From the sequence record MH252123.1: a stretch of DNA of 64,000 bases, one strand, 5' to 3'. This document shows, piece by piece, positions 38,834 to 63,787 of this stretch (the first letter of the stretch is position 1; the number at the start of each line of letters is the position of its first letter). The translations under genes and the position numbers were made by a program. The notes under the pieces were generated by a model. It saw only the letters and a program-made list of their open reading frames with translations, was not told the DNA's origin and did not search any database. The DNA comes from Klebsiella phage ZCKP1.

Positions 38834-38839
38834 AAAGTA

Positions 38840-39196: not shown

Positions 39197-39199
39197 GGC

Positions 39200-39255: not shown

Positions 39256-39272
39256 GTTTGTAAGGTGGTAGA

Positions 39273-39530: not shown

Positions 39531-39531
39531 T

Positions 39532-40143: not shown

Positions 40144-40171
40144 CATAGTGAAATTATGCAAGAGGTTTACA

Positions 40172-40267
40172 ATGATTAATAAAGAAAATAGCTTGACGGT
40201 TGGAACGATTAACGCTATCATTTTCGCCGTTCCATTTTGGGTTGTAGTAGCGGCTATTATTTTCTAA
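40172..40267 (+). CDS. array micro-ORF, 31 aa hydrophobic peptide (MINKENSLTVGTINAIIFAVPFWVVVAAIIF)
   Basis: sole ORF downstream of unit P3; RBS AAGAGG. Confidence 0.4.
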   Translation: MINKENSLTVGTINAIIFAVPFWVVVAAIIF

Positions 40268-40276
40268 AAAATATTC

Positions 40277-40337
40277 TTGACAACGTTTTTTAATCTGATA
40301 AGATGTATCACATAGGGCGGCGGAATACTTCCCCGCC
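40277..40337 (+). promoter_or_regulatory. unit P4: TTGACA-N16-TAAGAT, then GGGCGGCGGAAtactTCCCCGCC
   Basis: seen in sequence. Confidence 0.6.
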
Positions 40338-40358
40338 AAAACAAAAAAGGGTAACACA

Positions 40359-40721
40359 ATGAGCAAGCAAATCAATACTATCATGTTTAATCTGGTATCT
40401 TTCCGCGATGATATGAAAAATTTACCACGTGAAACGGTTGATATTCATGTTTCAGCTTATCGCGCCCTTATTGATATGTTACCGCTAAAACGTGATCAAC
40501 ATGCCGCTAATATGATGCTTAATGCTATGCTTAAAAAGATGATTCAAACGGATCTTACCCTGGCATATGAGTATCAAGGGCGCTTATATGCAACTTACAA
40601 CAGAGCGGTACCTGGTCTGGGAAGTACTGAAGAGTTGCACGGCTTAAACCTGGATCAAAACACTTGGGATAGTATGCGCCGCGTTATGGTATGGGCCGAA
40701 AGCGGTAAAATTTACGAATAA
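40359..40721 (+). CDS. array ORF, 120 aa
   Basis: unit P4; RBS AAAAGGG. Confidence 0.55.
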   Translation: MSKQINTIMFNLVSFRDDMKNLPRETVDIHVSAYRALIDMLPLKRDQHAANMMLNAMLKKMIQTDLTLAYEYQGRLYATYNRAVPGLGSTEELHGLNLDQNTWDSMRRVMVWAESGKIYE

Positions 40722-40727
40722 AAACGG

Positions 40728-40787
40728 TTGACACTGTTTAAAATTCTAGTATAGTTTACCACATAGGGCGGGAAATGGTTTCCCGCC
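40728..40787 (+). promoter_or_regulatory. unit P5: TTGACA-N16-TATAGT, then GGGCGGGAAatggtTTCCCGCC
   Basis: seen in sequence. Confidence 0.6.
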
Positions 40788-40809
40788 AACAATGAAAAAG
40801 GTTATCATC

Positions 40810-41175
40810 ATGGCTATTAATATTAATGTTTCCTCTTATGCTACCCTGGCTAACACGGCTAAAATTGAATTATCCAGCATTGAGGCGGTGCATATTAGCG
40901 CCCGTCGCTGGTTCCAACAGTCCTACGGTAATACATATTTTTCTTTAATGGTTGACGTTGAGATCGGCGGTAAACTGATCGAGGTGGTTAACGTTCCGTT
41001 TCAATATGGCTATGGTGATCATTTTGATACCGTCGCCCTGGAAGAGTTTAGCAAGGTTATCAACCTGGAGGGCAAAGAGTTTTCACGCGGCGCGTATCTT
41101 TCCCGTTTTTGCCGTGATAATGGGATCGCTGTATACAGTCATGCAAGCGATGTTAAACGTAAAAAAGATTTATAA
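40810..41175 (+). CDS. array ORF, 121 aa (MAININV...)
   Basis: unit P5; start refined to the ATG after AAAAAGG. Confidence 0.55.
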   Translation: MAININVSSYATLANTAKIELSSIEAVHISARRWFQQSYGNTYFSLMVDVEIGGKLIEVVNVPFQYGYGDHFDTVALEEFSKVINLEGKEFSRGAYLSRFCRDNGIAVYSHASDVKRKKDL

Positions 41176-41182
41176 AAAGCAT

Positions 41183-41241
41183 TGACAGCACGAATAAAAA
41201 GAGTAAACTGTATTACATAGAGAGCGGGAACACTTCCCGCC
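41183..41241 (+). promoter_or_regulatory. unit P6: TTGACA-N15-TAAACT, then GCGGGAAcacTTCCCGC
   Basis: seen in sequence. Confidence 0.55.
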
Positions 41242-41264
41242 TCACTGAAAAAGAGAGAAAAATC

Positions 41265-41504
41265 ATGGCTAAATCTAAAATGTACAACGGTCACAAAAAC
41301 AGAAATCATTGGAATGTAAGCCTTTGGATTAATAACGATGAATCGTTATACCGGTTGGCCCAAGATTTTATTAACGCTAATGCTAATCGTAATGATGCGG
41401 CGCGGGATATGATGCTTTTTCTGGAACAAACTGGACAAGATAAAACGCCAGACGGTTTCAAATATAGCACTACTGCGATCCGCGCCGCGATGGTTGGAAT
41501 GTAA
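41265..41504 (+). CDS. array ORF, 79 aa
   Basis: unit P6; RBS AAAGAGAGAAAA. Confidence 0.55.
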   Translation: MAKSKMYNGHKNRNHWNVSLWINNDESLYRLAQDFINANANRNDAARDMMLFLEQTGQDKTPDGFKYSTTAIRAAMVGM

Positions 41505-41512
41505 TAAAAACA

Positions 41513-41572
41513 GTTGACAACGTTTAAAATTAGTGTAAGATGTATCGCATAGGGCGGGAAGTGGTTTCCCGC
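41513..41572 (+). promoter_or_regulatory. unit P7: TTGACA-N16-TAAGAT, then GGGCGGGAAgtggtTTCCCGCC
   Basis: seen in sequence. Confidence 0.6.
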
Positions 41573-41595
41573 CAACAACAGAGAGATTAAAGATT

Positions 41596-41823
41596 ATGGC
41601 TATCAATATTGTTCGCGTATCCGGCACCGTTGGCACTTCCCAGGTTATTGCAGTTGTAACAAACAAAAAGATTAATGATGTATGTGAGATCTTGAATAAG
41701 TGGGCTATTGCTAATTTTGGGAAATATGCAAGCGTCGAGTACATCGAATCCTACCAGGTGCCAACCATCAGCCTAACCGATCTCAACGTTGATCGCCTGT
41801 TATGCCTGGATGAATTGATCTGA
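41596..41823 (+). CDS. array ORF, 75 aa (MAINIV...)
   Basis: unit P7; RBS AGAGAG. Confidence 0.55.
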   Translation: MAINIVRVSGTVGTSQVIAVVTNKKINDVCEILNKWAIANFGKYASVEYIESYQVPTISLTDLNVDRLLCLDELI

Positions 41824-41832
41824 AAAAGATTG

Positions 41833-41889
41833 TTGACACCGGAAAGAAAAAGAGTAAACTGTATTACGTAGGGCGGCAATGGTGCCGCT
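41833..41889 (+). promoter_or_regulatory. unit P8: TTGACA-N16-TAAACT, then AGGGCGGCAATGGTGCCGCT
   Basis: seen in sequence. Confidence 0.6.
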
Positions 41890-41913
41890 CACAACAGAAG
41901 AGAGATTATTACG

Positions 41914-42129
41914 ATGGCTAATATCCGCACACTGTTAAAAAATGCAAGTCAAGTTTTATTTTCAGATGACGAGTATTTCAATAAAGACATTACAGGCGTA
42001 AAAAATCTTAAAGATGTAAAGGATGTGATAGGTATTCGCGGATCTTTACGTAAAGGTGACTACTACGGCAATAAAGTACAATATAAATTAAATCAGTCTT
42101 ATGATTTTACTTTGACAATTATTTCATAA
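41914..42129 (+). CDS. array ORF, 71 aa
   Basis: unit P8. Confidence 0.55.
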   Translation: MANIRTLLKNASQVLFSDDEYFNKDITGVKNLKDVKDVIGIRGSLRKGDYYGNKVQYKLNQSYDFTLTIIS

Positions 42130-42135
42130 AACCGC

Positions 42136-42198
42136 TTGCAATCTTAATAAAATAAAGTAAACTGTATTACATCAAGGCGGCGGAATGGTCCACCGCCT
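42136..42198 (+). promoter_or_regulatory. unit P9: TTGCAA-N16-TAAACT, then GGCGGCGGAAtggtCCACCGCC
   Basis: seen in sequence. Confidence 0.55.
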
Positions 42199-42221
42199 AA
42201 CAAAGAGAAGAGGAAAACACC

Positions 42222-42389
42222 ATGATCACTTTCGCTACCCGTGAAGCCGCTCGCAACGTTGCCCGTAAAGTTAACGCCGCCAACCTGGGCGCTACGCTTA
42301 AAGCCCCGGTGAAAGATGAATCAGGCGCGTGGATCTTTCCTGGTCTGCGTCACGCTGATAAGCTAGGCACTTTAAGCCTTAAAAAATAA
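42222..42389 (+). CDS. array ORF, 55 aa (unlisted; MITFATREAARNVARKVNAANLG...)
   Basis: unit P9; RBS AGAGAAGAGGAAAA; start MITFA shared with the next ORF. Confidence 0.45.
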   Translation: MITFATREAARNVARKVNAANLGATLKAPVKDESGAWIFPGLRHADKLGTLSLKK

Positions 42390-42392
42390 TCG

Positions 42393-42430
42393 TTGACTTT
42401 TCGTTATAGCGCCCATTATAAGGCGCTATA
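42393..42430 (+). promoter_or_regulatory. promoter P10: TTGACT-N17-TTATAA with inverted repeat TATAGCGCC/GGCGCTATA overlapping the -10 (operator-like)
   Basis: seen in sequence. Confidence 0.5.
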
Positions 42431-42462
42431 GAGAAGAGAAACACTACTAACAAGGAAACATC

Positions 42463-42684
42463 ATGATCACTTTCGCTATTGTCGCCGTTGTTGCTGGTCA
42501 GGTTTACATAAACGATACATTCACCACAGAAGACAAGGCCGCAGGAGACATAACCGCCGTTTACAATGAGTGCAAGGCAGTAGAAAGGATGTTAGCGCCT
42601 TGTATGCTAATGAGTGAACGCCAGGACGGGATAACAGTGTTTACTAACATTGAGACAGGGTACCAAATGGTAGTAACAAAATAA
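42463..42684 (+). CDS. array ORF, 73 aa (MITFAIVAVVAG...)
   Basis: unit P10; RBS AAGGAAAC. Confidence 0.5.
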   Translation: MITFAIVAVVAGQVYINDTFTTEDKAAGDITAVYNECKAVERMLAPCMLMSERQDGITVFTNIETGYQMVVTK

Positions 42685-42687
42685 AGC

Positions 42688-42744
42688 TTGACACGGATTT
42701 AATTTTCAGTAAACTGTTACACGTAGGGCGGGAATAGTTCCCGC
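42688..42744 (+). promoter_or_regulatory. unit P11: TTGACA-N16-TAAACT, then AGGGCGGGAAtagTTCCCGCT
   Basis: seen in sequence. Confidence 0.6.
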
Positions 42745-42762
42745 TAAAAAGAGAGAAAAACC

Positions 42763-43116
42763 ATGAAAGCACAAAATGCAATTAAAGAGTACATCCTTGC
42801 CGCTATCGATTTTAATGATTACGGTATTACAACCGAAAAAGAGAAGATCGCGGAATTGATGCGCCGTTTTAATTCCGAGTACTGGTACCCTGATAACCAA
42901 TCACGTTTTAATTATAGTATTGTTAAAGCACTTGCATCATGGTTACAAGGTTTGCCATCAGATATTAATATCGCTTTCGAATATTGGGAAATTGATCGCT
43001 TGTTAACATCCTGGGGATACATTAAAGAGAATAGCAGCGATGATAAAATCCAACGAGAAAGGGAAAATTATTGGCTTTATATTGCAGGCGTGATCCTTGC
43101 TTGCTCTTATGAATGA
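42763..43116 (+). CDS. array ORF, 117 aa
   Basis: unit P11; RBS AAAGAGAGAAAA. Confidence 0.55.
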   Translation: MKAQNAIKEYILAAIDFNDYGITTEKEKIAELMRRFNSEYWYPDNQSRFNYSIVKALASWLQGLPSDINIAFEYWEIDRLLTSWGYIKENSSDDKIQRERENYWLYIAGVILACSYE

Positions 43117-43122
43117 TAAACC

Positions 43123-43176
43123 TTGACAATTTTACAAAACAGTTAAAATTAATAATATAGCGGCAATGGTGCCGCT
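43123..43176 (+). promoter_or_regulatory. unit P12: TTGACA (or TTTACA-N16-TAATAT), then AGCGGCAATGGTGCCGCT; the -10 assignment is ambiguous
   Basis: seen in sequence. Confidence 0.45.
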
Positions 43177-43195
43177 CATATAAAGAGGAAACAAA

Positions 43196-43342
43196 ATGAA
43201 TACATCTAATCGCGCAGAAAAAATCCAATCTTCCAAGATCCGCAAGGCCTGGAACGAGGAAGTGATCCGCAAAGGCGACAAGCGCAATAAAACAAAGCGC
43301 GGGAAGAGTGACAAATATAATTGGATGGATTTAGAGGATTAA
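43196..43342 (+). CDS. array ORF, 48 aa, Lys/Arg-rich basic peptide (unlisted)
   Basis: unit P12; RBS AAAGAGGAAAC; followed by intrinsic terminator. Confidence 0.45.
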   Translation: MNTSNRAEKIQSSKIRKAWNEEVIRKGDKRNKTKRGKSDKYNWMDLED

Positions 43343-43348
43343 CATAAC

Positions 43349-43377
43349 AAGGGCGCACCAAGCGCCCTTTCTTTTTA
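43349..43377 (+). terminator. intrinsic terminator T4 within the array (AAGGGCGCaccaaGCGCCCTT plus TCTTTTT)
   Basis: seen in sequence; identical hairpin to T5. Confidence 0.7.
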
Positions 43378-43397
43378 CATGTAGAGGATAAATAAAA

Positions 43398-43583
43398 ATG
43401 ACTTTAAACGAGCTTAAAACAGCCTACAACGCAACGTTAAAAATAGCCGTGCGTTACCGTGACGAATACGGTTTTATTGCGCAGGGCGTGATCCTGGGCT
43501 TTTCTGACGATGGTTTGATCTATGTTGATGCACATCACAACAAGGTTAAACCTGAAAACGTCATTAACATAAAATATCTTTAA
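43398..43583 (+). CDS. array ORF, 61 aa
   Basis: RBS GAGGATAAATAAAA; no promoter of its own (follows terminator T4). Confidence 0.45.
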   Translation: MTLNELKTAYNATLKIAVRYRDEYGFIAQGVILGFSDDGLIYVDAHHNKVKPENVINIKYL

Positions 43584-43589
43584 AAACGG

Positions 43590-43650
43590 TTGACACCATA
43601 ACCGGACCTGTTAAACTGTATTACATCAGGCGGGGGAATAGTTCCCCACC
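43590..43650 (+). promoter_or_regulatory. unit P13: TTGACA-N16-TAAACT, then GGCGGGGGAAtagTTCCCCACC
   Basis: seen in sequence. Confidence 0.6.
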
Positions 43651-43669
43651 ATACAAAAAGGTAAATATT

Positions 43670-43876
43670 ATGATCACCGCAAAACAAGAAAAAATTATTA
43701 TCGACGTTGCAGCCGTTGCCGCTATTGCTATTATTGGATCTTATTATGATACCCGTTTCCCGTCGGCTATGCATGAGATCGCCGCCGTTGCATCGGTTGG
43801 CGTGCTGTTTTACGTTGGTAAACGCTATTTATCACCAATGATTAACAAGCTGACACCGTGGAAAAATAAAGGTTGA
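43670..43876 (+). CDS. array ORF, 68 aa membrane protein
   Basis: unit P13; two TM helices. Confidence 0.5.
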   Translation: MITAKQEKIIIDVAAVAAIAIIGSYYDTRFPSAMHEIAAVASVGVLFYVGKRYLSPMINKLTPWKNKG

Positions 43877-43927
43877 TCCTGTTTTATATTGTGTTATAGT
43901 TATCGTGTAGGGCGGCAATGGTGCCGC
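43873..43927 (+). promoter_or_regulatory. unit P14: TTGATC-N16-TATAGT, then AGGGCGGCAATGGTGCCGC
   Basis: seen in sequence. Confidence 0.55.
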
Positions 43928-43948
43928 GCCCCCTTTGAGGATGAAATC

Positions 43949-44233
43949 ATGAGTAAAGCTAACACCGTGCTAATGTTTTCCCTGGTTAATGATGCCGCTC
44001 GCTTGTCCAACATGACGCAGGAGGGTAACACATTAACGGCAACATTCACCAATAAGCTTAATCGAGTGATCATCATCTCACTGAAAACAGTTAGTAAAGG
44101 CTTTTACTCGTTAGCTTATCATTGGATCACTGATACCAACGAGACAAGCCAAGATTATAGCGCCCCTTTCCCTGAATCAATGGCACGGGAGATCATCGCC
44201 GCCGTTGTAAATGATGGTTTGTTTACTGAATAA
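43949..44233 (+). CDS. array ORF, 94 aa
   Basis: unit P14; start refined to the ATG after GAGGATGAAATC. Confidence 0.5.
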   Translation: MSKANTVLMFSLVNDAARLSNMTQEGNTLTATFTNKLNRVIIISLKTVSKGFYSLAYHWITDTNETSQDYSAPFPESMAREIIAAVVNDGLFTE

Positions 44234-44251
44234 AATAATTTAGAAAAAGGC

Positions 44252-44279
44252 TTGCAATCATTGTCACTATCTTATCAAT
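44252..44279 (+). promoter_or_regulatory. atypical promoter P15: TTGCAA-N16-TATCAA, no hairpin
   Basis: seen in sequence; weak. Confidence 0.3.
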
Positions 44280-44299
44280 CATCTTATAAGGTGCATACC

Positions 44300-44461
44300 A
44301 TGAAAACCGCAGACATTATCAAAGAGATCGCCCTTGCCGCTGACGTTGAGATCGAGGAAGTGATCGCGCTCAATCTTACAGAAAACGATCTGCGCAACTA
44401 TGAAGCGGAAAGCGTGAAAGCAAGCGGCGCGGTCCTGGTGTATGATCCGGCTAACAAGTAA
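44300..44461 (+). CDS. array ORF, 53 aa
   Basis: atypical promoter P15 (no hairpin); RBS AAGGTG. Confidence 0.4.
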   Translation: MKTADIIKEIALAADVEIEEVIALNLTENDLRNYEAESVKASGAVLVYDPANK

Positions 44462-44470
44462 GGGGGTAAC

Positions 44471-44581
44471 ATGAATCCGAAAGATATGCAAGCATGGAAA
44501 GGGTACGACGATCTGAGCGCCTTGCGTAATAAGTCCAGCCGTAACCTTAGACGGTTGGAAGCAAAGAAAAAGAAAAAATAG
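44471..44581 (+). CDS. array micro-ORF, 36 aa basic peptide (unlisted)
   Basis: RBS AAGGGGGTAAC directly after the upstream stop. Confidence 0.35.
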   Translation: MNPKDMQAWKGYDDLSALRNKSSRNLRRLEAKKKKK

Positions 44582-44582
44582 T

Positions 44583-44639
44583 TTGACAAGTCCGCGTAGT
44601 CTGGTAATATGTATCTTGTAGGGCGGCAATGGTGCCGCT
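44583..44639 (+). promoter_or_regulatory. unit P16: TTGACA-N16-TAATAT, then AGGGCGGCAATGGTGCCGCT
   Basis: seen in sequence. Confidence 0.6.
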
Positions 44640-44659
44640 CACAAGAAGAGAGAAAAATC

Positions 44660-44944
44660 ATGAAAATCACAAAAAGCCTAACTAATTATGCAGCACGTCG
44701 CGGATTATGTTTAACCGTTGAAAACTTAGGGAAAGAAGACTTTTTGTGTTTTTGGGAGCTTGAAAATGATTGCGAGTGGATGTTTTCCTATTCTATCTGC
44801 GAAGATCAAAACGGTTGTTTGTTAACCTGGCGCGGTAATATCTATTTACCGGAAGAAATTAAAGAAGAGTTACCAGGTACGATCATGACAGAGAGACAGC
44901 TTAAGGAAGTGATCAATTTTGTAGGGCAAAACATTAAAAAATAA
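44660..44944 (+). CDS. array ORF, 94 aa
   Basis: unit P16; RBS AGAGAGAAAAATC. Confidence 0.55.
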   Translation: MKITKSLTNYAARRGLCLTVENLGKEDFLCFWELENDCEWMFSYSICEDQNGCLLTWRGNIYLPEEIKEELPGTIMTERQLKEVINFVGQNIKK

Positions 44945-44945
44945 T

Positions 44946-45009
44946 TTGACAGTAGGCAAACAACGTAGTAAAGTTTATTACATAGAGCGGCGGAATGGTC
45001 CACCGCTCA
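44946..45009 (+). promoter_or_regulatory. unit P17: TTGACA-N17-TAAAGT, then GAGCGGCGGAAtggtCCACCGCTC
   Basis: seen in sequence. Confidence 0.55.
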
Positions 45010-45029
45010 CAACAGAAGAGAAACAAATC

Positions 45030-45200
45030 ATGATCCCGACTATGTTTTATGTATCGCGCAAAGGTCACAATATTTTTTGGTCTGAAGATTTAAATGAAGC
45101 CATGACGTTTGCCCGTAATCGTGTTGCTATCGGTGGCGTTAACATCACCGTAACCGATGAAAACGGCATTGAATACTATAACGGCGACGATGAAGAGTAA
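45030..45200 (+). CDS. array ORF, 56 aa
   Basis: unit P17; RBS AGAAGAGAAAC. Confidence 0.45.
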   Translation: MIPTMFYVSRKGHNIFWSEDLNEAMTFARNRVAIGGVNITVTDENGIEYYNGDDEE

Positions 45201-45206
45201 TTAATA

Positions 45207-45229
45207 AGGCGGGGAATACTTCCCGCCAC
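45207..45229 (+). other. orphan leader-type hairpin AAGGCGGGGAAtactTCCCGCCAC with no promoter in front
   Basis: same hairpin family as the array leaders; sits directly after the ORF stop at 45200. Confidence 0.45.
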
Positions 45230-45266
45230 GCAGTGAATTTTCCGTTTGGGAAGTAAAAAATAAATC

Positions 45267-45328
45267 TTGACGATAATTTGTTATCTGATAGAATGTATTT
45301 CGTAGGGCGGGGCAATAAGGCAACGCCC
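45267..45328 (+). promoter_or_regulatory. unit P18: TTGACG-N16-TAGAAT, then GGGCG(gggcaataaggcaa)CGCCC (divergent hairpin)
   Basis: seen in sequence. Confidence 0.5.
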
Positions 45329-45346
45329 ATTAATGAGGGTAGAATC

Positions 45347-45451
45347 ATGTTAGAGAAAATTTTCACGGTTGTAATAGTGGGCCTGGCGTTATCGGTTGGA
45401 GTGGTTGCAACTATGGCTAACATGATCCTATCTTCCCACGGTATCGGCTAA
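45347..45451 (+). CDS. array micro-ORF, 34 aa hydrophobic peptide (MLEKIFTVVIVGLALSVGVVATMANMILSSHGIG)
   Basis: unit P18; RBS GAGGGTAGAATC. Confidence 0.4.
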   Translation: MLEKIFTVVIVGLALSVGVVATMANMILSSHGIG

Positions 45452-45461
45452 GGTGAAACAA

Positions 45462-45677
45462 ATGATCACGAATAAGACAGGTAAAACGGAATTTTTACGC
45501 GGCTTGCAAGTTGGTAAACCTGAGATCTGGCATTGTACTAAATCCGCGCATAATGAAATGAAAGATTTTACCGCTACTTTACAACGTGTTAAAATATCTA
45601 TCACACAGAAAAAAGCCTTGTTAGTAGTAGAAAACGAGATCCCGAAAACTATTATTATTGTCGAGCGTACAGCATGA
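45462..45677 (+). CDS. array ORF, 71 aa
   Basis: RBS AAGGTGAAA; co-transcribed with the micro-ORF. Confidence 0.5.
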   Translation: MITNKTGKTEFLRGLQVGKPEIWHCTKSAHNEMKDFTATLQRVKISITQKKALLVVENEIPKTIIIVERTA

Positions 45678-46060
45678 AAACAGAAATCATTATTGAAATC
45701 ATCAACGGTTATAAAGAAGCCTTTATTTTTGCTGAATCAGCAAGGGATCATGAAGGTAATTTTATTGATAACTTAGACGATTATGATTTTTCTCCTAGCG
45801 CGGACGAACGGATCGCCCAGGATGTAACAGCTTTTATTAATGCTAATCTTGCCGCTATCTCTGAGGCAATGAGCGACGGCGCAACAGCCAACCAGATCGG
45901 GAATGATTTACATTTTACCCGTAACGATCACGGCGTAGGCTTTTGGGATCGCCCTGAAATATACACCACTAACACGGCGAACCGCCTAACCAATGCAGCT
46001 AAGTTTATGCCGAACGTGTCGGCTTACATTGGTGAAGATAATTTTATTTATATTGAATAA
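45674..46060 (+). CDS. array ORF, 128 aa
   Basis: ATGA overlap with upstream gene. Confidence 0.5.
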   Translation: MKTEIIIEIINGYKEAFIFAESARDHEGNFIDNLDDYDFSPSADERIAQDVTAFINANLAAISEAMSDGATANQIGNDLHFTRNDHGVGFWDRPEIYTTNTANRLTNAAKFMPNVSAYIGEDNFIYIE

Positions 46061-46066
46061 AAAGTA

Positions 46067-46123
46067 TTGACACAGATCGCCAGTGTGATAATATTTACCA
46101 CGTAGGGCGGCAATGGTGCCGCT
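46067..46123 (+). promoter_or_regulatory. unit P19: TTGACA-N16-TAATAT, then AGGGCGGCAATGGTGCCGCT
   Basis: seen in sequence. Confidence 0.6.
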
Positions 46124-46144
46124 CCCCGAAAAAGGTAAAACATC

Positions 46145-46336
46145 ATGAAAACTATCTCCTACCTGGAATCAAACAACATGTTTTTTGCCCCCGTTGATGA
46201 AATTATCGAGGCTTTAAACAATGAAGAGGGGATCAATGGATTATCTTACGACCAACTTTTACAACTGGTTGCAACAAATGAAAAACTTGCTTACTATGTT
46301 GAAAATTTTGATGAAGCTGTAATCTTTACAAAATAA
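46145..46336 (+). CDS. array ORF, 63 aa
   Basis: unit P19; RBS AAAGGTAAAAC. Confidence 0.55.
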   Translation: MKTISYLESNNMFFAPVDEIIEALNNEEGINGLSYDQLLQLVATNEKLAYYVENFDEAVIFTK

Positions 46337-46339
46337 TCC

Positions 46340-46396
46340 TTGATCTAATCTCTCAGATAACTTATATTTAATGCGTAGGGCGGCAATGGTGCCGCC
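46340..46396 (+). promoter_or_regulatory. unit P20: TTGATC-N17-TATATT, then AGGGCGGCAATGGTGCCGCC
   Basis: seen in sequence. Confidence 0.55.
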
Positions 46397-46414
46397 GATA
46401 ATGAGGAAAACAAA

Positions 46415-46714
46415 ATGGAAACTATCGCTATTGTTACCGTAGAAAAACTGGTTGTTGGTGATGTATTCGCGTTAATGGTGCCTAACAGCAGCAAGCTGGG
46501 CGCTTATGAAGTAATGGATCATAAAAATGAATCATTTGGCGACGGTTGCACAATGGCGGTAAAATCTTTAAGGGATGGAATCATCCGTCAAGCTAACTGG
46601 CACAAAGGGAATCAAGTCGGTTTAATATCAGCTAATTTCTTGCCAGAAGAGCAAACGTTAGACCAACTATCAGGCGGTAAGACGTTAGCCGAACTACTGG
46701 AAACAGCGATCTAA
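46415..46714 (+). CDS. array ORF, 99 aa
   Basis: unit P20; RBS GAGGAAAAC. Confidence 0.55.
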   Translation: METIAIVTVEKLVVGDVFALMVPNSSKLGAYEVMDHKNESFGDGCTMAVKSLRDGIIRQANWHKGNQVGLISANFLPEEQTLDQLSGGKTLAELLETAI

Positions 46715-46721
46715 TCGACAA

Positions 46722-46737
46722 GGGGCGGCAACGCCCC
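46722..46737 (+). other. orphan GC hairpin GGGGCG-gcaa-CGCCCC between array ORFs
   Basis: seen in sequence; no U-tract and no upstream -35/-10. Confidence 0.4.
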
Positions 46738-46767
46738 CATTAAACGCAATAGGAAGAGGATAGACAC

Positions 46768-47058
46768 ATGAAAAAGATGATCGCAGTAGTTGCCCTGGTT
46801 GTTGGTATTAACGCGCCTGTACTGGCTAATGAGTTGCCAGAATCCATCACGCTAACCGATATCAACGCAATAAACCGGATCGGCGTTAATTATCGCCTAT
46901 GCCTTGCCGCTAAAACTTTCCAGGACGGCACGACAGAATACCACGGATTCGAGGGTATCCGCTGCGGTGAGCTTGCACGCGACCTTAAGGAAGATCCAGA
47001 CCTTGAGGCCATACCGATGACCGTAAACGGTAAAGCTTACGTAAACCGCCAACAATGA
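46768..47058 (+). CDS. array ORF, 96 aa exported protein (signal peptide MKKMIAVVALVVGINAPVLA)
   Basis: RBS GGAAGAGGATAG; preceded by an orphan hairpin. Confidence 0.5.
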   Translation: MKKMIAVVALVVGINAPVLANELPESITLTDINAINRIGVNYRLCLAAKTFQDGTTEYHGFEGIRCGELARDLKEDPDLEAIPMTVNGKAYVNRQQ

Positions 47059-47069
47059 GAAAGGTAATC

Positions 47070-47189
47070 ATGACAATGGGGATCATAGTAGCAACGCTGG
47101 CGCTGATCCCCTTCCTGGTTGAATATGTGCTTATTAGTGTTGTCCTGGTAGTCAGTGACTTATTGGAAACGGTTGGCACCTGGTTTTAA
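47070..47189 (+). CDS. array micro-ORF, 39 aa hydrophobic peptide (unlisted)
   Basis: RBS GAGAAAGGTAATC. Confidence 0.35.
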   Translation: MTMGIIVATLALIPFLVEYVLISVVLVVSDLLETVGTWF

Positions 47190-47200
47190 GGAATAATAAA

Positions 47201-47392
47201 ATGAATACAGAACAAGTTAGAAAGGTATTAGCAGCGTTGCGGTATCACAACCATAGCAAGGTAAAGAATGATCCTGATTATGTGGATTCAAGCCTGGAAG
47301 AAGACACATTGCAAGCTATAAGCCATATGCGAGAATTGTTTAAGCGTATGACAGAGAAAAACAGATCTGATTATATAGGTGACGAGATCTAA
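47201..47392 (+). CDS. array ORF, 63 aa
   Basis: RBS AAGGAATAATAAA. Confidence 0.45.
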   Translation: MNTEQVRKVLAALRYHNHSKVKNDPDYVDSSLEEDTLQAISHMRELFKRMTEKNRSDYIGDEI

Positions 47393-47399
47393 AATAGCT

Positions 47400-47456
47400 T
47401 GCACAATGTATCTGATAGTGTAAGATGTATCACGTAGGGCGGCAATGATGCCGCTC
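47400..47456 (+). promoter_or_regulatory. unit P21: TTGCAC-N16-TAAGAT, then AGGGCGGCAATGATGCCGCT (loop variant)
   Basis: seen in sequence. Confidence 0.55.
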
Positions 47457-47476
47457 ACAACTGGAAGGAAAACACC

Positions 47477-47680
47477 ATGACTACAGCTAACCGCCTGATC
47501 GCCGTCCTGAACAAAGCAAAGGCTAACCGCCTGGATGTTCAAATCAAAGAGCAAGCAAATGGCGAGATCCTTGCTACGGTGTCCGATGGCGGTTATGTAT
47601 CGGAATCATTTTTATCAGGGAGCTTAGATCATCTTGTTTGGAAATTAGAAATTATCGTGGAGGATATGCAAATCATCTAA
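47477..47680 (+). CDS. array ORF, 67 aa
   Basis: unit P21; followed by terminator T6. Confidence 0.55.
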   Translation: MTTANRLIAVLNKAKANRLDVQIKEQANGEILATVSDGGYVSESFLSGSLDHLVWKLEIIVEDMQII

Positions 47681-48314: not shown

Positions 48315-48328
48315 ATAACATTTCATAC

Positions 48329-48357
48329 CAGGGCGCACCAAGCGCCCTTTCTTTTTG
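48329..48357 (+). terminator. intrinsic terminator T5 closing the array (CAGGGCGCaccaaGCGCCCTT plus TCTTTTTG); duplicate of T4
   Basis: seen in sequence. Confidence 0.7.
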
Positions 48358-49316
48358 CCCGAACAATGTTGATAGATTCCGCCTATGGAAAACAGACACA
48401 GAACAAAACTGAATAAATAGCGGTATCAAGCTAATCAACCATTAAACGAATAACCATACCTCCCAGGGTAACAGGCTGTTAGAGAGCCATTTATAGCGGT
48501 TAAAATCGATCAACAACCAACAACAAACTATCAAAAACACCCTTTTACCTCCTTTCCAGTGCAATGATAACCATTATCATCTATCCATGTTTATCTATGC
48601 AATATAAGTGCATAACTATAATGTTGATAACAGTTCGCAACAACTAACTAACCAACAACCTAAAACAATAAGCAAACTAATCATAATCAAAGGAATAATA
48701 GCAAGATGATTGATAACGACAAACAATCAAACCATGATGAATACTAAGCAAGATAACGATAACACGACAAAACAACCAACTAACGAACAATAACAAACGA
48801 AACCATTAAAATAATAACTATTAGCAAAATAGTGCCTGAATGAAATCATTACAAAACGAATCATTCACAGAGTCATCATTAGCACGCTATGCCGGACACA
48901 TAGCGAGCTAATAATAAGCCAACTACACCCCAACAATCATAACCATCGGTGACGGTTATTTCTTGTTATTGCGTAGCTTGCAATAATTGCAAGCGTAATT
49001 ACGCTTACACTTATTGCGCTGGCTTATTATTAGCATTATATGTAATTACCAAGATCATAACATTAGCGCAATAACAATAATCATTGTGGTAATTACATAA
49101 GGAAACAATTAGCATAGCAATAATTATGGGGGCAATGGGAGGATGATTATCATCATTCCGATACATTGCACACTATGCACATAATAGAATAAAAGTCAAT
49201 AATTTTGGGGGCGAAATGTTACCGCCACAGGCGGGAATGTTGAGCAAGTTCTCTTAAACGTAAATAAAATCAGAAAATTCTTGATTTATTTTAGTTTTTA
49301 TGTTAATAAACGTTTA

Positions 49317-49337
49317 AATAATAATCATTCTCATATA
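49317..49337 (+). promoter_or_regulatory. Fur-box-like operator motif copy c (AAATAATAATCATTCTCATAT)
   Basis: 12 of 13 match to the palindrome; shares the ATCATTCTCAT extension with copy b. Confidence 0.45.
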
Positions 49338-49495
49338 AATAATAGTCTGCTTGTCATGAGCGGGATTAGTTGACAATGTTCCGTCATATGATGAAGTTGC
49401 CAAACCATTGATAAATAAGCGTTTGTGTGATTTATAATCAAGTGGCCCACCTTGTCGCTATGTTGGCATAAGCCTTGCATAAGTCATTGAATACG

Positions 49496-49520
49496 AATGA
49501 TAATTATTCTCATTCGCATG
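49496..49520 (+). promoter_or_regulatory. Fur-box-like operator motif copy d (GAATGATAATTATTCTCATTCGCAT)
   Basis: 12 of 13 match; followed by TGAGAA, giving the inverted pair TTCTCA...TGAGAA. Confidence 0.45.
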
Positions 49521-49855
49521 ATATTTGAGAATTGTCGCTGCGTGGACCTGACGGCCCGAAAATTCGCGTTAAGCACTTCTTACGTATACGCCATGATTTT
49601 TGCCATATGATATTGATTCTATTAGATATTCTTGCCATGATTGCCATGAAACAGGGTGTGTCGAAATAATCTCTCCCCGTGGATATTTTGGGTTACTTTT
49701 TATACAAGAGTGGGGTGTCAAAAATAATCGGTATATATGGGATAATTGATAGGGAAAAGCAATGATAAATGAATTGTAATTGCCGAAGGTTGTTGGTAGG
49801 ATGTTCCTCGTTGAGAGTTACGATGTTTGTCATGAAACCAAGAGAGGAGATTATC

Positions 49856-57775: not shown

Positions 57776-57991
57776 ATGTGGATTGTCCGTCTTAAATATG
57801 ATGGCCCAGGTTCTTGGGTGCATAACGTTTGTGGTTGTGATTCCGAAGAAGCAGCACACAAAGCAGGAAGAGCAGTAAGTGCGTTCTATAATGACAAACC
57901 TCTTTGTTTAGAGATGGCAGGTGTGGTGAGTATGAGCATGTTTGAATATTACTCCTACGATATTAAAAAACATGAAGGAGAGTGGAAATGA
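57776..57991 (+). CDS. hypothetical protein, 71 aa
   Basis: RBS GGAGGAATAACC. Confidence 0.45.
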   Translation: MWIVRLKYDGPGSWVHNVCGCDSEEAAHKAGRAVSAFYNDKPLCLEMAGVVSMSMFEYYSYDIKKHEGEWK

Positions 57992-58308
57992 GTGAAGAAC
58001 TTTTAACATTTTACCGCACGTATTTGGCATGGCTGGAAGCTGGTGCTCCTGAAGGGGAACCGTTCACCCGTTGCACAGGCTTGTGCTCGAACCTCTATGA
58101 TTTTTATGATATGGGGGAAAGCGAACGATACGAACCTGTACTGGATGAAATGCATGAGCAGTTCTACCACAAAGATTTGGTTATGGTGTTGCCTTTCAAT
58201 AGTAATTTTGGAAAGTACACCTTAGAAGCGGAAAAAAGCCGTTGTCATTTGAATGTGGATCGTGTGAACTGGGTAAAAGAACGTGTAGCAGAAGAAATAA
58301 TTGGTTGA
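57988..58308 (+). CDS. family-A paralog 4, 106 aa
   Basis: start refined to the ATG after GAAGGAGAGTGGAA; LTFYRTYLAWL...GLCSNLYDF...NVDRVNWVKERV. Confidence 0.55.
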   Translation: MSEELLTFYRTYLAWLEAGAPEGEPFTRCTGLCSNLYDFYDMGESERYEPVLDEMHEQFYHKDLVMVLPFNSNFGKYTLEAEKSRCHLNVDRVNWVKERVAEEIIG

Positions 58309-58829: not shown

Positions 58830-59129
58830 ATGCAAGTTGAAGACCTGATCAACATTCTGAATAAAGCCAAAGAGAAAGGGGCTATTAAGGACTGGAAACG
58901 TGAAACAAGTGAAGACCTATCTCACTGTTGCCGAGAATTTTACATCGAAGGTATTGCTGACGATCATTATATTATCGAATGGTATATCAACTTAATGACT
59001 CTTAAGCACGGTTCGTTTGAGGTTTGGTTTGATGACATTGATGTAAATGGTTTTCATCCTGGCTATAAAATTGCTATGCAGTTATCTTATCGTAGAGAAG
59101 TTGTAGCACATTTGGGTTTACATAACTAA
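58830..59129 (+). CDS. hypothetical protein, 99 aa
   Basis: RBS AAAGGAGATAGAT. Confidence 0.5.
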   Translation: MQVEDLINILNKAKEKGAIKDWKRETSEDLSHCCREFYIEGIADDHYIIEWYINLMTLKHGSFEVWFDDIDVNGFHPGYKIAMQLSYRREVVAHLGLHN

Positions 59130-59139
59130 GGAGAAAAGA

Positions 59140-59463
59140 ATGCAAGCAGTTGTTAACGAAGCTATTATGAACTTATCCTTCTTGTTAGCTGGTTTAGGAG
59201 GTGTTCTCATAGGTTTGGCTCTTATCTGGTGTATTCGTCGATTAATCGGGTACCGACAAAAAGGTGTTTCATGTTTTGTATCTTACAATTTTACAACTGC
59301 TTACAGCAATGAGGTTGGATCTGGTAATGCTCAAGCATTTTTACCAACATATCCTCCTACAGTAGAAGATATTCGAAACTTGGAAGTAGAACTTATGGGA
59401 CTAAGTGATAACTATACATCTCTAGTTATTCAAAATATTTTTCGACTAAAACAGGAGGCGTGA
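59140..59463 (+). CDS. membrane protein (one TM helix), 107 aa
   Basis: RBS AAGGAGAAAAGA. Confidence 0.5.
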   Translation: MQAVVNEAIMNLSFLLAGLGGVLIGLALIWCIRRLIGYRQKGVSCFVSYNFTTAYSNEVGSGNAQAFLPTYPPTVEDIRNLEVELMGLSDNYTSLVIQNIFRLKQEA

Positions 59464-59676
59464 ATGAAGGTACATTACCCTCATCCCTTTGATCCTAAAA
59501 ACAAAGCCGTAATTCTTCGTCAGTGGCAACGGGTTTGTCGTACTAAATGTCCAATCAATAGCCCACACAATGTAGACAAGGATTATCTTGGAACATTTGT
59601 TGAATACACTTACATAGATAAAAACAAGCGTAAACAACATGTCGAGGAATACTGCTTAAGAGTAGAATGGCTGTAA
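59464..59676 (+). CDS. hypothetical protein, 70 aa
   Basis: RBS CAGGAGGCGTGA; overlaps the upstream stop. Confidence 0.45.
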   Translation: MKVHYPHPFDPKNKAVILRQWQRVCRTKCPINSPHNVDKDYLGTFVEYTYIDKNKRKQHVEEYCLRVEWL

Positions 59677-59690
59677 ATAATAAATACCTT

Positions 59691-59725
59691 GACAAGTGTT
59701 TATTCGTTTTGTAAAGTGAGAATAC
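59691..59725 (+). promoter_or_regulatory. candidate sigma70-like promoter (TTGACA-N17-TAAAGT) upstream of the serine recombinase gene
   Basis: seen in sequence. Confidence 0.4.
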
Positions 59726-59746
59726 AGCAATGGTTTAGGAGTGGTT

Positions 59747-60418
59747 ATGAAAAAGTTTGTTGTTTACAGTCGTCTTTCTAAACAGAAAAAAGGTGAGGCA
59801 CAATATGGTATGGAGAGCCAAGAGAACGATATCCGTTACTTCTTAGACTCTGTGCCTGATGCTGAAGTTATTGGTCAATTTTCTGAATACTATTCGGGTA
59901 AGGGCGATTGGAAGCAACGTAAGGAACTGGTTAAAGCGGTTGAAATGTGTAAAGCTACCGGAGCAACTTTATTGGTAGCTAAAGTTGACCGCTTGGGTCG
60001 TAACAACGCCTCCGTAGCAACTCTTCTAGAAATGATCGATGTTAAGATAGCCATTATGCCAGACGCAGATAAAATGGTTATACAGCTTCTGTCTGTTCTG
60101 GCTGAACAAGAAGTTAGAGGTATTGCTGATCGTATTAAAAAGGGTCTTGCTGTAGCAAAAAGCAAAGGTGTTTTATTAGGCAGTGCTAATCCTAAAACTG
60201 CCGCTGCACGTAGAAAAGGAAAAATGGAATACAACTCTGTTAAAGCAGACGCTTTTGCAGAGACATTCCGTGAACGCTTGGAGATCCTTAGAGATTTAAA
60301 TACACCTTACAAAACTATTGCTGAAAAATTCAATAGTAAGAAAATAGCAACAGCACGTGGTGGTAAATGGGATGCTAAAACTGTTTCTCGTTTGTGTGCC
60401 AGACTGAACATTAAATAG
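59747..60418 (+). CDS. small serine recombinase (resolvase/invertase family) with C-terminal HTH
   Basis: start refined to the ATG after AGGAGTGGTT; catalytic Ser context VVYSRLSKQKKG, LLVAKVDRLGRN, C-terminal HTH TIAEKFNSKKIATARGGKW; its own sigma70-like promoter upstream. Confidence 0.7.
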   Translation: MKKFVVYSRLSKQKKGEAQYGMESQENDIRYFLDSVPDAEVIGQFSEYYSGKGDWKQRKELVKAVEMCKATGATLLVAKVDRLGRNNASVATLLEMIDVKIAIMPDADKMVIQLLSVLAEQEVRGIADRIKKGLAVAKSKGVLLGSANPKTAAARRKGKMEYNSVKADAFAETFRERLEILRDLNTPYKTIAEKFNSKKIATARGGKWDAKTVSRLCARLNIK

Positions 60419-60426
60419 GAGAGGAT

Positions 60427-60849
60427 ATGAAACAAGAAAATGAATCTGTAGATCACTTAATCATGCTGTCAGCCCTTTTTGCCGGATGGGACGTATTTTT
60501 TGAAAATTTGTTCAATTCTGCTACAGATGGTTCCGATTTTATGCGCCAGTTTAAACGACGAACTGTTGAGGACTATGCTTTCTATTCAGGTCGGATTGAA
60601 AAAGGTTACGAAGATACAAATACAACACTCACCATTAAAGTTTTAGATGTGATGTTTAGTGTTATAGATGCTATCGACGAAAGTCTTCCGATCCTAGACA
60701 ATTGTAATACGAAAGCCTATGTTTACAAAATAGCTCGTGCTTATGTGTCTGCAAACAGTTGTCTTCTTTCCACCCAGATTGCCGTGAACAATCTTGCCAA
60801 CTTGTTCGATGAAGGAGAAACTTTTTATGACAATCGATTTGAAGTGTAA
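60427..60849 (+). CDS. hypothetical protein, 140 aa
   Basis: RBS AGGAGAGGAT. Confidence 0.5.
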   Translation: MKQENESVDHLIMLSALFAGWDVFFENLFNSATDGSDFMRQFKRRTVEDYAFYSGRIEKGYEDTNTTLTIKVLDVMFSVIDAIDESLPILDNCNTKAYVYKIARAYVSANSCLLSTQIAVNNLANLFDEGETFYDNRFEV

Positions 60850-61192
60850 GAGGATTCTTTTAGATTTCTATAATAATTGGTTAGAACACCTCCGTCTCTT
60901 TCCAAGAGAAAGTGGTTACGCTGATGTTGGCTTATGCCGAGGTCTACGTATGTATATAAGTGATGAATTTCGGGCCGAGCATTCTTTAGCATATTCTGTT
61001 TATGGTATGCAATTAGCCAGTTTTGAAAACGCTGGCTTAGATACAACTTTCCCATTTAACACAGCAAAATCTTTTGAGCAAGAGTGTAAGGAAAAACGTT
61101 GCATGTTTAATGAAAAACGTGTACAGTGGGTTAAGGATCGAGTTAAACAACTGGAACAAGAGTTGGATTTCTTCTATGATGAGGCAGAATAA
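60827..61192 (+). CDS. family-A paralog 5, 121 aa
   Basis: start refined to the ATG after GAAGGAGAAACTTTTT; LDFYNNWLEHL...GLCRGLRMY...NEKRVQWVKDRVKQ. Confidence 0.5.
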   Translation: MTIDLKCKRILLDFYNNWLEHLRLFPRESGYADVGLCRGLRMYISDEFRAEHSLAYSVYGMQLASFENAGLDTTFPFNTAKSFEQECKEKRCMFNEKRVQWVKDRVKQLEQELDFFYDEAE

Positions 61193-62131: not shown

Positions 62132-62470
62132 ATGTATTACACTGAAGACTACATATTGTATAACTTTTTTAAAGGTTGGTTGAAATGGGCGGAACAAGCT
62201 CCTGTCGGAGATTGTGTTTTTCCTTGGGATTCTCGTCAAGGCTTGTGTCGTTGTTTGGAAGATTGGCTTATAACCACAAACTACAATTCAGAAACTAAGA
62301 AATCTACATCAAACAGATTAAAAATATTGTTTGAAGAAGAGGGTTTAGATCCAATTTATCCTTTCGGTGAGGAAAGTTTCCACAATGGTCTTTTCCTTGG
62401 CACTCAACATTATGATAAAGATCGTGTAGATTGGGTAAAAGAAAAGGTAGCACAGTATGAATGGGGCTAA
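62132..62470 (+). CDS. family-A paralog 6, 112 aa
   Basis: start refined to the ATG after AGGAGGCGCTA; NFFKGWLKW...GLCRCLEDW...DKDRVDWVKEKV. Confidence 0.55.
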   Translation: MYYTEDYILYNFFKGWLKWAEQAPVGDCVFPWDSRQGLCRCLEDWLITTNYNSETKKSTSNRLKILFEEEGLDPIYPFGEESFHNGLFLGTQHYDKDRVDWVKEKVAQYEWG

Positions 62471-63224: not shown

Positions 63225-63427
63225 AAGCTTTTGCTGTATACTCTACTGTAGGATTCTTTTATTGGATTATAGTTATTGTCGGATGTTGGTTAGGTTCTTG
63301 TGTTGTGATGGGAGAATGGTTAACATACAACGTATTCGAATGGGATGTAGTTTGTAGATCATTACTTGTTATATGGACTGCTATTGTTTGTTGGATAACT
63401 GTTAGTCTAACATTAGATCTATATTGA
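63218..63427 (+). CDS. small membrane protein, 69 aa
   Basis: RBS GGAGGAAAG; two TM helices. Confidence 0.5.
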   Translation: MLKAFAVYSTVGFFYWIIVIVGCWLGSCVVMGEWLTYNVFEWDVVCRSLLVIWTAIVCWITVSLTLDLY

Positions 63428-63527
63428 TTAATAGATGGTAGATAGATGATCATAGTTTATCTACCTTCACTTACGTTTCATACCTCACTATCGTGAGTAA
63501 CATGAAACATTATTATATAGAAATCTA

Positions 63528-63586
63528 CTACTCGCTATCGCTCGTAAACATATGTTTAGGGTACCATACTTTTTTGAAAAAGTCAA
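63528..63586. repeat. conserved ~60-bp element copy 2
   Basis: shares ACTCGCTATCGCTCG and TTTAGGGTA(g/c)CATA(t/c)TTTTTTGAAAAAGTCAA with copy 1; the central hairpin differs (AAACATATGTTT versus ACCCttcgGGGT). Confidence 0.5.
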
Positions 63587-63787
63587 TGGTGACTCACCTA
63601 TCAATTATCTGTTTAAGATAAGTCTTACCTATCAATCTAACTCTTAACTAGTATTGCACCTATAGTAAGACTATTCCTATAGTTATTAACCCTCTTCTTC
63701 TGTAGAATGTAATTAGATCCTTGACAAACTCACAAAACTTGTGTTACATTGTGTCTCACAGGTGAATAATACCGAACAGGAGGAAGA

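Follow-up and report, generated by a model that had tools for sequence, protein, structure and literature searches.

What does a small serine recombinase do among the early genes of a lytic phage? The question is raised by a gene located in a stretch of 64,000 nucleotides from Klebsiella phage ZCKP1 (sequence record MH252123.1), which was analysed over its full length and is referred to as the window. Recombinase genes are routinely taken as a warning of temperate behaviour in phage-therapy screening, phAPEC8-like phages are popular therapy candidates, and small serine recombinases have no known role in virulent phages. A preliminary description of the locus had recognised a small serine recombinase with a promoter of its own and had proposed a DNA invertase of the Gin/Cin/Hin kind as the leading explanation, with the resolution of replication multimers and action on host DNA as further options. 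The presence of such an enzyme and its promoter is confirmed by the open reading frame, the sequence motifs, the PF00239 match and the promoter hexamers, and the proposed function is addressed below. The coordinates of the features are compiled in Table 1.

Table 1. Features of the recombinase locus, in positions of the window.
Feature	Position	Strand	Basis
Serine recombinase coding sequence	59747-60418	+	Pfam PF00239 and PHROG 125 matches
Ribosome-binding site AGGAG, 5 nt before ATG	59737-59741	+	read from sequence
Predicted sigma-70-type promoter: TTGACA 59689-59694, 17-nt spacer, TAAAGT 59712-59717	59689-59717	+	consensus scan
Catalytic domain and helix E, residues 1-146	59747-60184	+	PF00239, family alignment, AF2 model
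Mosaic block: promoter and catalytic domain	59679-60180	+	local blastn, phiWec181-type L003 versus window
C-terminal DNA-binding domain, residues 147-223, helical	60185-60415	+	PF07508 fragment, profile match, Foldseek

The coding sequence comprises 672 nucleotides including the stop codon and specifies a protein of 223 amino acids, one fewer than the 224 given initially. Translation was assigned to the ATG codon that is annotated in public records, and the GTG codon at 59741, used as the start by the ORF finder, was rejected because it lies inside the ribosome-binding site. The intergenic gap upstream of the gene measures 70 nt. The predicted promoter, which is close to the interval 59691-59725 that had been named for it, matches 10 of 12 consensus positions in the consensus scan. 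With respect to the 56-64 kb region, 22 promoter-like matches were observed and 21.2 were expected from shuffled sequences, so that a match to TTGACA-17-TAAAGT means little by itself. The promoter-like element ahead of the recombinase gene is kept in five lineages: TTGAC(A/T), a spacer of 16-18 nt and a -10-like hexamer also precede the ribosome-binding site, at the equivalent place, in the orthologous genes of phiWec181, VEcB, Klebsiella phi1_175008 and ICP1. The gene is probably transcribed early, by the host RNA polymerase, from this sigma-70-type promoter. The neighbouring genes are small and belong without exception to PHROG families of unknown function, in agreement with the original view of an enzyme encoded among anonymous early genes with no structural gene beside it.

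The two motifs quoted for the enzyme at the outset, YSRLS and LLVAKVDRLGRN, were located at residues 7-11 and 75-86. The Pfam Resolvase profile PF00239 matched residues 5-142 with 66 bits (cut-off 23.3; E = 5e-18) and was also matched by 25 of 25 family members, and PHROG 125, named 'DNA invertase', was matched by the recombinase protein with E = 2.6e-32. In an alignment of 25 relatives that are 31-81% identical, the residues Tyr7, Arg9, Ser11, Gln25, Arg58, Asp81, Arg82 and Arg85 are invariant, and Glu120, Glu122 and Arg129 are almost so. The invariant residues represent the counterparts of the catalytic residues of gamma-delta resolvase (R8, S10, D67, R68 and R71), and over the DRLGR block the enzyme can be aligned directly with the Tn3 and gamma-delta resolvases. 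The catalytic serine of an enzyme of the resolvase/invertase superfamily is thus present as Ser11, in a Y-x-R-x-S context that is invariant in the alignment. The AF2 model, with a mean pLDDT of 87.9, displays a mixed alpha/beta catalytic fold followed by the long helix E (helix 109-139), and a Foldseek search with this model returned Sin, gamma-delta, TP901-1 and Bxb1. The alignment and the model together predict that the protein is a small site-specific recombinase of the serine type, competent for catalysis and with Ser11 as the nucleophile.

A C-terminal helix-turn-helix had likewise been noted beforehand and was found, although its predicted type is that of the large serine integrases and not that of Hin. 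The 'Recombinase' profile PF07508 gave a weak match at residues 187-216 that covers only profile positions 19-48 of 102; the same profile matched 13 of the 25 family members and the 'recombinase-like HTH' profile PF20552 matched two, whereas a Hin-type helix-turn-helix was absent from the Pfam matches of the recombinase and the 25 family members. Additionally, helix E and the C-terminal domain were matched by the family profile to residues 132-244 of SprA/YokA, the integrase of SPbeta, and the best Foldseek match overall was the Bxb1 integrase. The C-terminal part is predicted to form a three-helix DNA-binding domain like the one with which the 'recombinase domain' of large serine integrases begins, and the deduced architecture combines a protein of resolvase size with a DNA-binding domain resembling the first sub-domain of these integrases. 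The closest solved structures in a phmmer search with the single sequence were the Tn3 and gamma-delta resolvases (E ~1e-6) and Gin (E = 6e-3); when the family profile was compared with the PDB, Gin ranked at the top (5e-17) and the resolvases reached ~1e-15 to 2e-15. The recombinase thus has no close kin among the studied enzymes. The architecture itself is common, since 3,813 clusters, mostly of 215-240 amino acids and with end-to-end matches, were recovered at E <= 1e-30 when 1.84 billion representatives were searched with the profile. In two of the viral IMG/VR loci with family members (L092 and L094), two dyad sites are located directly 3' of the gene.

More than 60 records of Phapecoctavirus, the phAPEC8-like members of the Stephanstirmvirinae, which are lytic myoviruses of ~150 kb, match the region surrounding the gene with 98.6-99.5% identity. 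Short terminal repeats have been reported for this subfamily (PMC12210895, PMC12695924). A direct terminal repeat of 328 bp was mapped from the Mt1B1_P17 record to positions 49243-49570, and two other records begin exactly at 49243; the window therefore spans the joined physical ends of the genome. The recombinase gene, at a distance of ~10.2 kb from the left physical end of the genome, reads inward within a long plus-strand block of small genes that starts at the terminal repeat. The long record of WPEC1 was discarded as a sign of long terminal repeats, as it ends within replication genes and looks misassembled. Rfam and tRNA scans yielded nothing relevant.

An identical recombinase protein is encoded in about 59 of 61 Phapecoctavirus records, the flanking DNA of which differs by 1-2%, and a comparison with the gene of phage G1 revealed 10 differences in 672 nucleotides, all ten of them synonymous. 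By means of tblastn the recombinase was detected in ~130 records of Stephanstirmvirinae, about as many as carry the end region of the subfamily. The phi92-like phages and the Klebsiella relatives possess an orthologue that is 52-57% identical and is encoded at another locus under a promoter of its own; the identity to the protein of VEcB (Justusliebigvirus) amounts to 57%, and that of the syntenic neighbour proteins ranges from 31 to 88%. These distributions indicate a conserved and near-universal gene of the Stephanstirmvirinae, comprising the phAPEC8-like and phi92-like lytic myoviruses. The invariant catalytic residues, the near-identical proteins, the exclusively synonymous change and the broad presence point to purifying selection on the gene and argue against a decaying passenger. 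Many GenBank records label the protein as 'methionine ABC transporter ATP-binding protein', which is a mis-annotation.

The position of the gene differs between the genera. In Justusliebigvirus and the Klebsiella relatives it stands, with its own promoter, between small genes of a block encoding HslV, a methyltransferase, a phosphatase and DprA, and it is co-oriented with the transcription of this block. G1, a Phapecoctavirus, carries the complete block but shows a gap of 46 nt with a terminator at the place of the VEcB gene. In the phiWec181-type sequence L003, the mosaic block listed in Table 1 is 82% identical to the window and represents the sole aligning stretch between 58754 and 62539; the catalytic domains are 95% identical and the DNA-binding domains only 36%. 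The ICP1 homologue is found in a run of genes without legacy gene numbers in the record and may be an accessory gene in a variable region. The comparison of these sequences indicates that a unit of promoter and recombinase moved at least once and that the DNA-binding domain was exchanged, which implies that the target specificity is not fixed. Both the relocation and the domain exchange fit the general promoter-flanked mosaicism of the region.

In systems of the Gin/Hin type, two inverted crossover sites of ~26 bp flank a segment that usually adjoins the invertase gene, and an enhancer bound by Fis typically lies in the 5' part of this gene. The reading that the preliminary description had put first, namely a Gin/Cin/Hin-style invertase acting on a segment elsewhere, finds some encouragement in the name of PHROG 125 and in the family profile, which places Gin slightly above the resolvases (5e-17 versus 2e-15). 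The segment would be a promoter or a tail-fibre cassette at another place in the phage genome, and flipping it would generate two types of phage. Inverted 26-bp crossover sites, the search for which had been proposed beforehand as a check, were found in neither G1, a genome of 151,245 bp to which the window is collinear, nor VEcB (147,702 bp) when all 26-mers of the complete genomes were compared with each other on both strands at a threshold of at least 23 of 26 matching positions. The inverted pairs that reached the threshold in G1 were limited to a terminator pair and one early promoter cassette, with ~0.5 chance pairs expected, and those in VEcB to terminators, Fur-like boxes and a few single pairs at chance level, none of them near the gene; a gix/hix-like core occurred at the chance rate and not above it. 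All genes of the tail, baseplate and tail-fibre module are located on one strand and are tightly packed, which leaves no alternative cassettes to flip. Moreover, the tail module (23.8 kb) and the early region (25 kb) gave one collinear place per record in ~64 genomes when searched by megablast, and ten independent isolate or metagenome contigs around the gene were collinear as well. Inverted repeats with an arm adjoining the gene were counted three times in 80 viral (IMG/VR) loci with family members, compared with 3.0 expected. Two distant prophage relatives (P0071 and P0089) do adjoin tail genes but were dismissed as evidence for a switch, since they lack flanking inverted repeats. With no paired sites and no heterogeneity among records or contigs, which the preliminary description had named as grounds for refutation, and with no Hin-type helix-turn-helix, the invertase reading is largely refuted already, and we consider it quite improbable.

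Several sequence elements were examined as candidate target sites and rejected. A 26-bp imperfect palindrome at 59679-59704 overlaps the -35 hexamer of the recombinase promoter; this sequence occurs only once in the window, and phiWec181 does not share its right half, both of which speak against a crossover or operator site. Strong dyads between 58.3 and 63.8 kb were at chance level (one found, 0.5 expected), in a type of scan that degenerate subsites could escape; the same reservation applies to the test for a res site, in which the 70-nt gap displayed only this unique, non-conserved palindrome. Nested inverted repeats at 48875-49043, by the terminal repeat, are kept with compensatory changes in phiWec186 and in the Justusliebigvirus inny. 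They were rejected as a res or crossover site because they are near-identical in phiWec186 (with a 1-nt central deletion) despite the swapped DNA-binding domain, and they are better explained by DNA maturation or packaging. A 66-bp direct repeat (29523-29586 and 63522-63586) that had been considered as a pair of sites reads as a minus-strand promoter, TTGACT-17-TACCCT, with its leader. Four tandem palindromes at 37731-37838, regarded as possible accessory sites, match the host Fur box and are kept across genera whatever the DNA-binding domain of the recombinase. The 26-mer, dyad and palindrome scans of the window, G1 and VEcB thus revealed no target site of the recombinase.

Our preferred reading, held tentatively and with a probability of roughly 0.3, is that during the early phase of infection the enzyme carries out a resolvase-like reaction on the DNA of the phage, each genome of which would offer one site of weak symmetry. 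Dimers of the recombinase would bind this short site, two bound sites would pair in a tetramer, and Ser11 would cut all four strands, whereupon the subunits would rotate and religate them. The reaction would join copies of the one site that each genome contains, and as a result forms that are circular, concatemeric or in replication would be resolved or fused. The absence of any repeated site would be accounted for if each genome contains only one, and a resolvase-like role would also fit, by analogy, the usual habit of phage recombinases to act on phage DNA. On the other side, the upstream gap of 70 nt is too short for a classical res site with three subsites, and the exchange of the DNA-binding domain while the non-coding end region stayed argues against a fixed housekeeping site at the end region. 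The different loci in the sister genera and the possibly accessory nature of the ICP1 homologue weigh in the same direction and, to our knowledge, multimer resolution is not a need of phages with short terminal repeats.

The relocation could also be viewed as the essential property of the unit, such that promoter and recombinase form a cassette that is kept by moving or shuffling between phage genomes and has little or no role in the phage cycle. The differing locus in sister genera, the 46-nt gap with a terminator that G1 shows at the VEcB position, the phiWec181 homology block that begins exactly at the promoter and stops mid-gene, the unnumbered genes around the ICP1 homologue, which suggest a variable region, and the large size of the family and its spread over many phages are all consistent with such a cassette. 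Within Phapecoctavirus, however, the locus is fixed and the protein invariant, with synonymous change only, whereas decay would be expected of a selfish element that has no more empty sites to occupy; the edges of the cassette lack terminal repeats and target duplications, the domain order is unlike that of IS607-type serine transposases, and the general promoter-flanked mosaicism of the region can explain the relocation. We regard this explanation as rather doubtful. No role on host or competitor DNA is known to us for a small serine recombinase, and we judge it about equally doubtful that the enzyme acts on non-phage DNA, such as host chromosome elements, prophages, satellites or co-infecting competitors, in the course of host takeover or conflict. 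The host-type promoter and the probable early expression would suit such a function, the phage itself is without a pair of sites, and the DNA-binding domain diverges faster than the catalytic domain and was swapped (36% versus 95% identity), a pattern as in conflict systems. Host serine recombinases such as PinQ can influence phage adsorption (PMC12529663). Nevertheless, a candidate host site is lacking, the PADLOC scan for defence and anti-defence systems gave no match, and the host dies within one cycle, so that rearranging its DNA would be of limited benefit.

Tn3-family resolvases are repressors of their own promoters, and the palindrome over the -35 hexamer would be in line with a protein that serves mainly as a DNA-binding regulator, either an autorepressor or a repressor of early promoters, with recombination being vestigial. 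We consider this unlikely, since the catalytic residues have stayed invariant in deeply diverged relatives although a pure repressor could do without them, and the palindrome is not kept in phiWec181. Least probable, and to be expected only by a very rare exception, is an integrase that supports a cryptic lysogenic or carrier state. Such an integrase would agree with the resemblance of the C-terminal domain to that of large serine integrases, and family members are located near the ends of viral contigs somewhat more often than expected (33 versus 20). The zinc-ribbon and coiled-coil parts used by integrases are missing, however, and a search of 5,426 complete E. coli genomes with window positions 59000-61000, covering the gene and ~700 bp on each side, gave no match that would represent a prophage form. 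The phage group has moreover been described as strictly lytic (PMC10282059).

The literature found on this recombinase consists of passing mentions and includes no experiments. In one study it was suggested as a probable resolvase for concatemers, keeping concatemers as single molecules (PMC10282059), and for two of these phages no recombinase genes were predicted (PMC10269720). One worry is removed from the therapeutic use of these phages, as the recombinase is a conserved core gene of a lytic lineage, no prophage form was seen in E. coli and the enzyme is not a host-range switch. It is conceivable, albeit at long odds, that a core early recombinase of strictly lytic terminal-repeat phages performs a job that is not known for any small serine recombinase. 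It could circularise or process the phage genome, on entry or during replication, in the manner of Cre/lox, or it could attack competing phages or elements resident in the host at specific sites, retargeted via a swappable DNA-binding domain. If a substrate is found, it would disclose an extra step in the DNA handling of terminal-repeat phages or a new weapon in the conflicts of phages with their hosts or with one another. The recombinase might furthermore serve as a compact tool with exchangeable DNA-binding domains.

The enzyme can be compared with several known systems. The Tn3 and gamma-delta resolvases share with it a size of ~185-225 amino acids, the order of catalytic domain, helix E and C-terminal DNA-binding domain, and the equivalents of Ser10, Arg8, Asp67, Arg68 and Arg71, and they are its best single-sequence matches in the PDB. 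This match is weak (E ~1e-6), however, the C-terminal domain is not the helix-turn-helix of Hin and gamma-delta, no res site with three subsites was recognised beside the gene, and the gene is located among the early genes of a lytic phage and not on a transposon or plasmid. Gin of phage Mu, Cin of P1 and the other Fis-dependent invertases such as Hin are small serine recombinases, phage-encoded in the former cases; Gin is the top profile match in the PDB, and the label 'DNA invertase' is used in PHROG and in some records. In contrast to these systems, inverted crossover sites, an invertible segment or alternative tail-fibre cassettes are absent here, the DNA-binding domain differs, and the carrier phage is lytic instead of temperate. 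The Cre/loxP system of P1 is comparable only as a functional analogue, since the circularisation of terminally redundant DNA and the resolution of multimers represent one possible role of the enzyme; Cre is a tyrosine recombinase and loxP adjoins cre, whereas no site was found here in or near the 328-bp terminal repeat. The serine transposases of the IS607 family are likewise small serine recombinases, of minimal elements, and their catalytic domains match weakly (ISC1926 TnpA), but in TnpA a MerR-like helix-turn-helix is N-terminal, whereas the catalytic domain of the phage enzyme begins at residue 5, and neither element ends nor repeats at the cassette edges were detected. The large serine integrases Bxb1, PhiC31 and SprA/YokA differ by their length of 450-600 amino acids, compared with 223, by a zinc ribbon, a coiled coil and the remainder of the recombinase domain, all absent here, and by a prophage form, of which the 5,426 E. 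coli genomes contain none for this phage; it is the start of their 'recombinase domain' that the C-terminal helices of the enzyme match. The class of the enzyme is an ordinary one, and what is new is the setting, in which a lytic lineage has it among its core early genes.

The packaged genome has a 328-bp direct terminal repeat, which was mapped from the record of phage Mt1B1_P17 and lies well inside the window; two other records start exactly at its first nucleotide. These positions indicate that the window represents an assembly joined into a circle and continues across the physical genome ends. The coordinates of the features in this and other regions are summarized in the table.

Candidate regulatory and structural features of phage ZCKP1 and related genomes
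Feature	Position	Remarks
Direct terminal repeat (packaged genome), 328 bp	49243-49570	mapped position
Non-coding DNA, about 0.9 kb	48357-49240	3' of terminator 48327-48356
Nested inverted-repeat structure	48875-49043	200-370 bp left of terminal repeat
17-bp hairpin, loop CCGGACA	within 48875-49043	part of nested structure
Long-range stem	48907-48921 with 49020-49034	part of nested structure
38-bp palindrome	48980-49017	central part of nested structure
Four tandem 21-bp palindromes	37731-37838	spacing about 29 bp; consensus AAATGATAATCATTCTCATTT
Further Fur-box-like copies	49316-49341, 49495-49508	within terminal repeat
Further Fur-box-like copies	2762-3920 (Justusliebigvirus inny)	end region
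Small early proteins, PHROG 2510 paralogues	57982-58308, 60827-61192, 62132-62470	no assigned function; repeat families D10, D15
21-bp dyad-symmetric sequence, two copies	6673-6694, 7107-7128 (L092 and L094)	AACAT.ACTCCGAGT.A.GTT
66-bp element, two copies	29523-29586, 63522-63586	minus-strand promoter TTGACT-17-TACCCT and leader, as read from sequence
64-aa ORF	63259-63453	minus strand
Promoter-hairpin cassette, about 60 nt	38825-47480	at least nine copies; repeat families D1-D7

The four tandem palindromes have the E. coli Fur-box core as their consensus, and their array ranked first among the motif clusters of the complete genome. Further copies occur within the terminal repeat as well as in the end region of the genome of Justusliebigvirus inny, a member of the phi92-like sister genus; one of these copies is a perfect AATGATAATCATTATCA. 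The distribution of these motifs suggests that the host Fur protein exerts iron-dependent control near the genome ends. The plus strand of the non-coding region that precedes the terminal repeat has a strong excess of A and C, with a GC skew of -0.36 and an AT skew of +0.35 at positions 48500-48899. It is conserved at 90-97% within the genus, its first 700 nt are conserved at about 73% in Justusliebigvirus, and a comparison of the region with Rfam yielded no family match. The hairpin, the long-range stem and the palindrome of the nested structure are all three preserved by compensatory changes in phiWec186 and Justusliebigvirus inny, and the structure may serve in the maturation or packaging of the DNA, or may instead form a structured RNA.

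With respect to the serine recombinase encoded at 59747-60418, the catalytic domain is 95% identical to that of the phiWec181-type protein (4001-4675 in genome L003), whereas the DNA-binding domains share only 36% identity, with the exchange point located near codon 145. Many GenBank records label the recombinase 'methionine ABC transporter ATP-binding protein'. An identical protein is encoded in the records of Campylobacter phage B15, Acinetobacter phage vB_AbaM_ABPW7 and Dompiswa phage TSP7_1, the host labels of which may be unreliable; the DNA of the B15 and TSP7_1 records is more than 98% identical to that of E. coli phages. A relative with 33% identity is present on the IMG/VR contigs L092 and L094, and the 21-bp dyads, located directly 3' of its gene and 434 bp beyond, are possible recombination sites for this protein.

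The PHROG 2510 paralogues share the C-terminal motif R-V-x-W-V-K-(D/E)-R-V, of which extra copies were detected at positions 50177, 50545 and 54897. The two copies of the 66-bp element are 80% identical, and the second one, which is conserved in phiWec181, is located in a 360-bp non-coding gap (63428-63787) within a block that otherwise consists of plus-strand genes. Transcription from this promoter-like copy may yield an antisense RNA or serve to express the 64-aa ORF on the minus strand.

The promoter-hairpin cassettes precede the ribosome-binding sites of successive small genes and are composed of a TTGACA promoter, a -10 region and a GC-rich hairpin (GGGCGGCAATGGTGCCGC), followed by the ribosome-binding site; one copy at about 17236 has the opposite orientation. 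In T4-type phages, promoter-stem-loop units are thought to drive gene shuffling, and the cassettes of ZCKP1 are reminiscent of these units.
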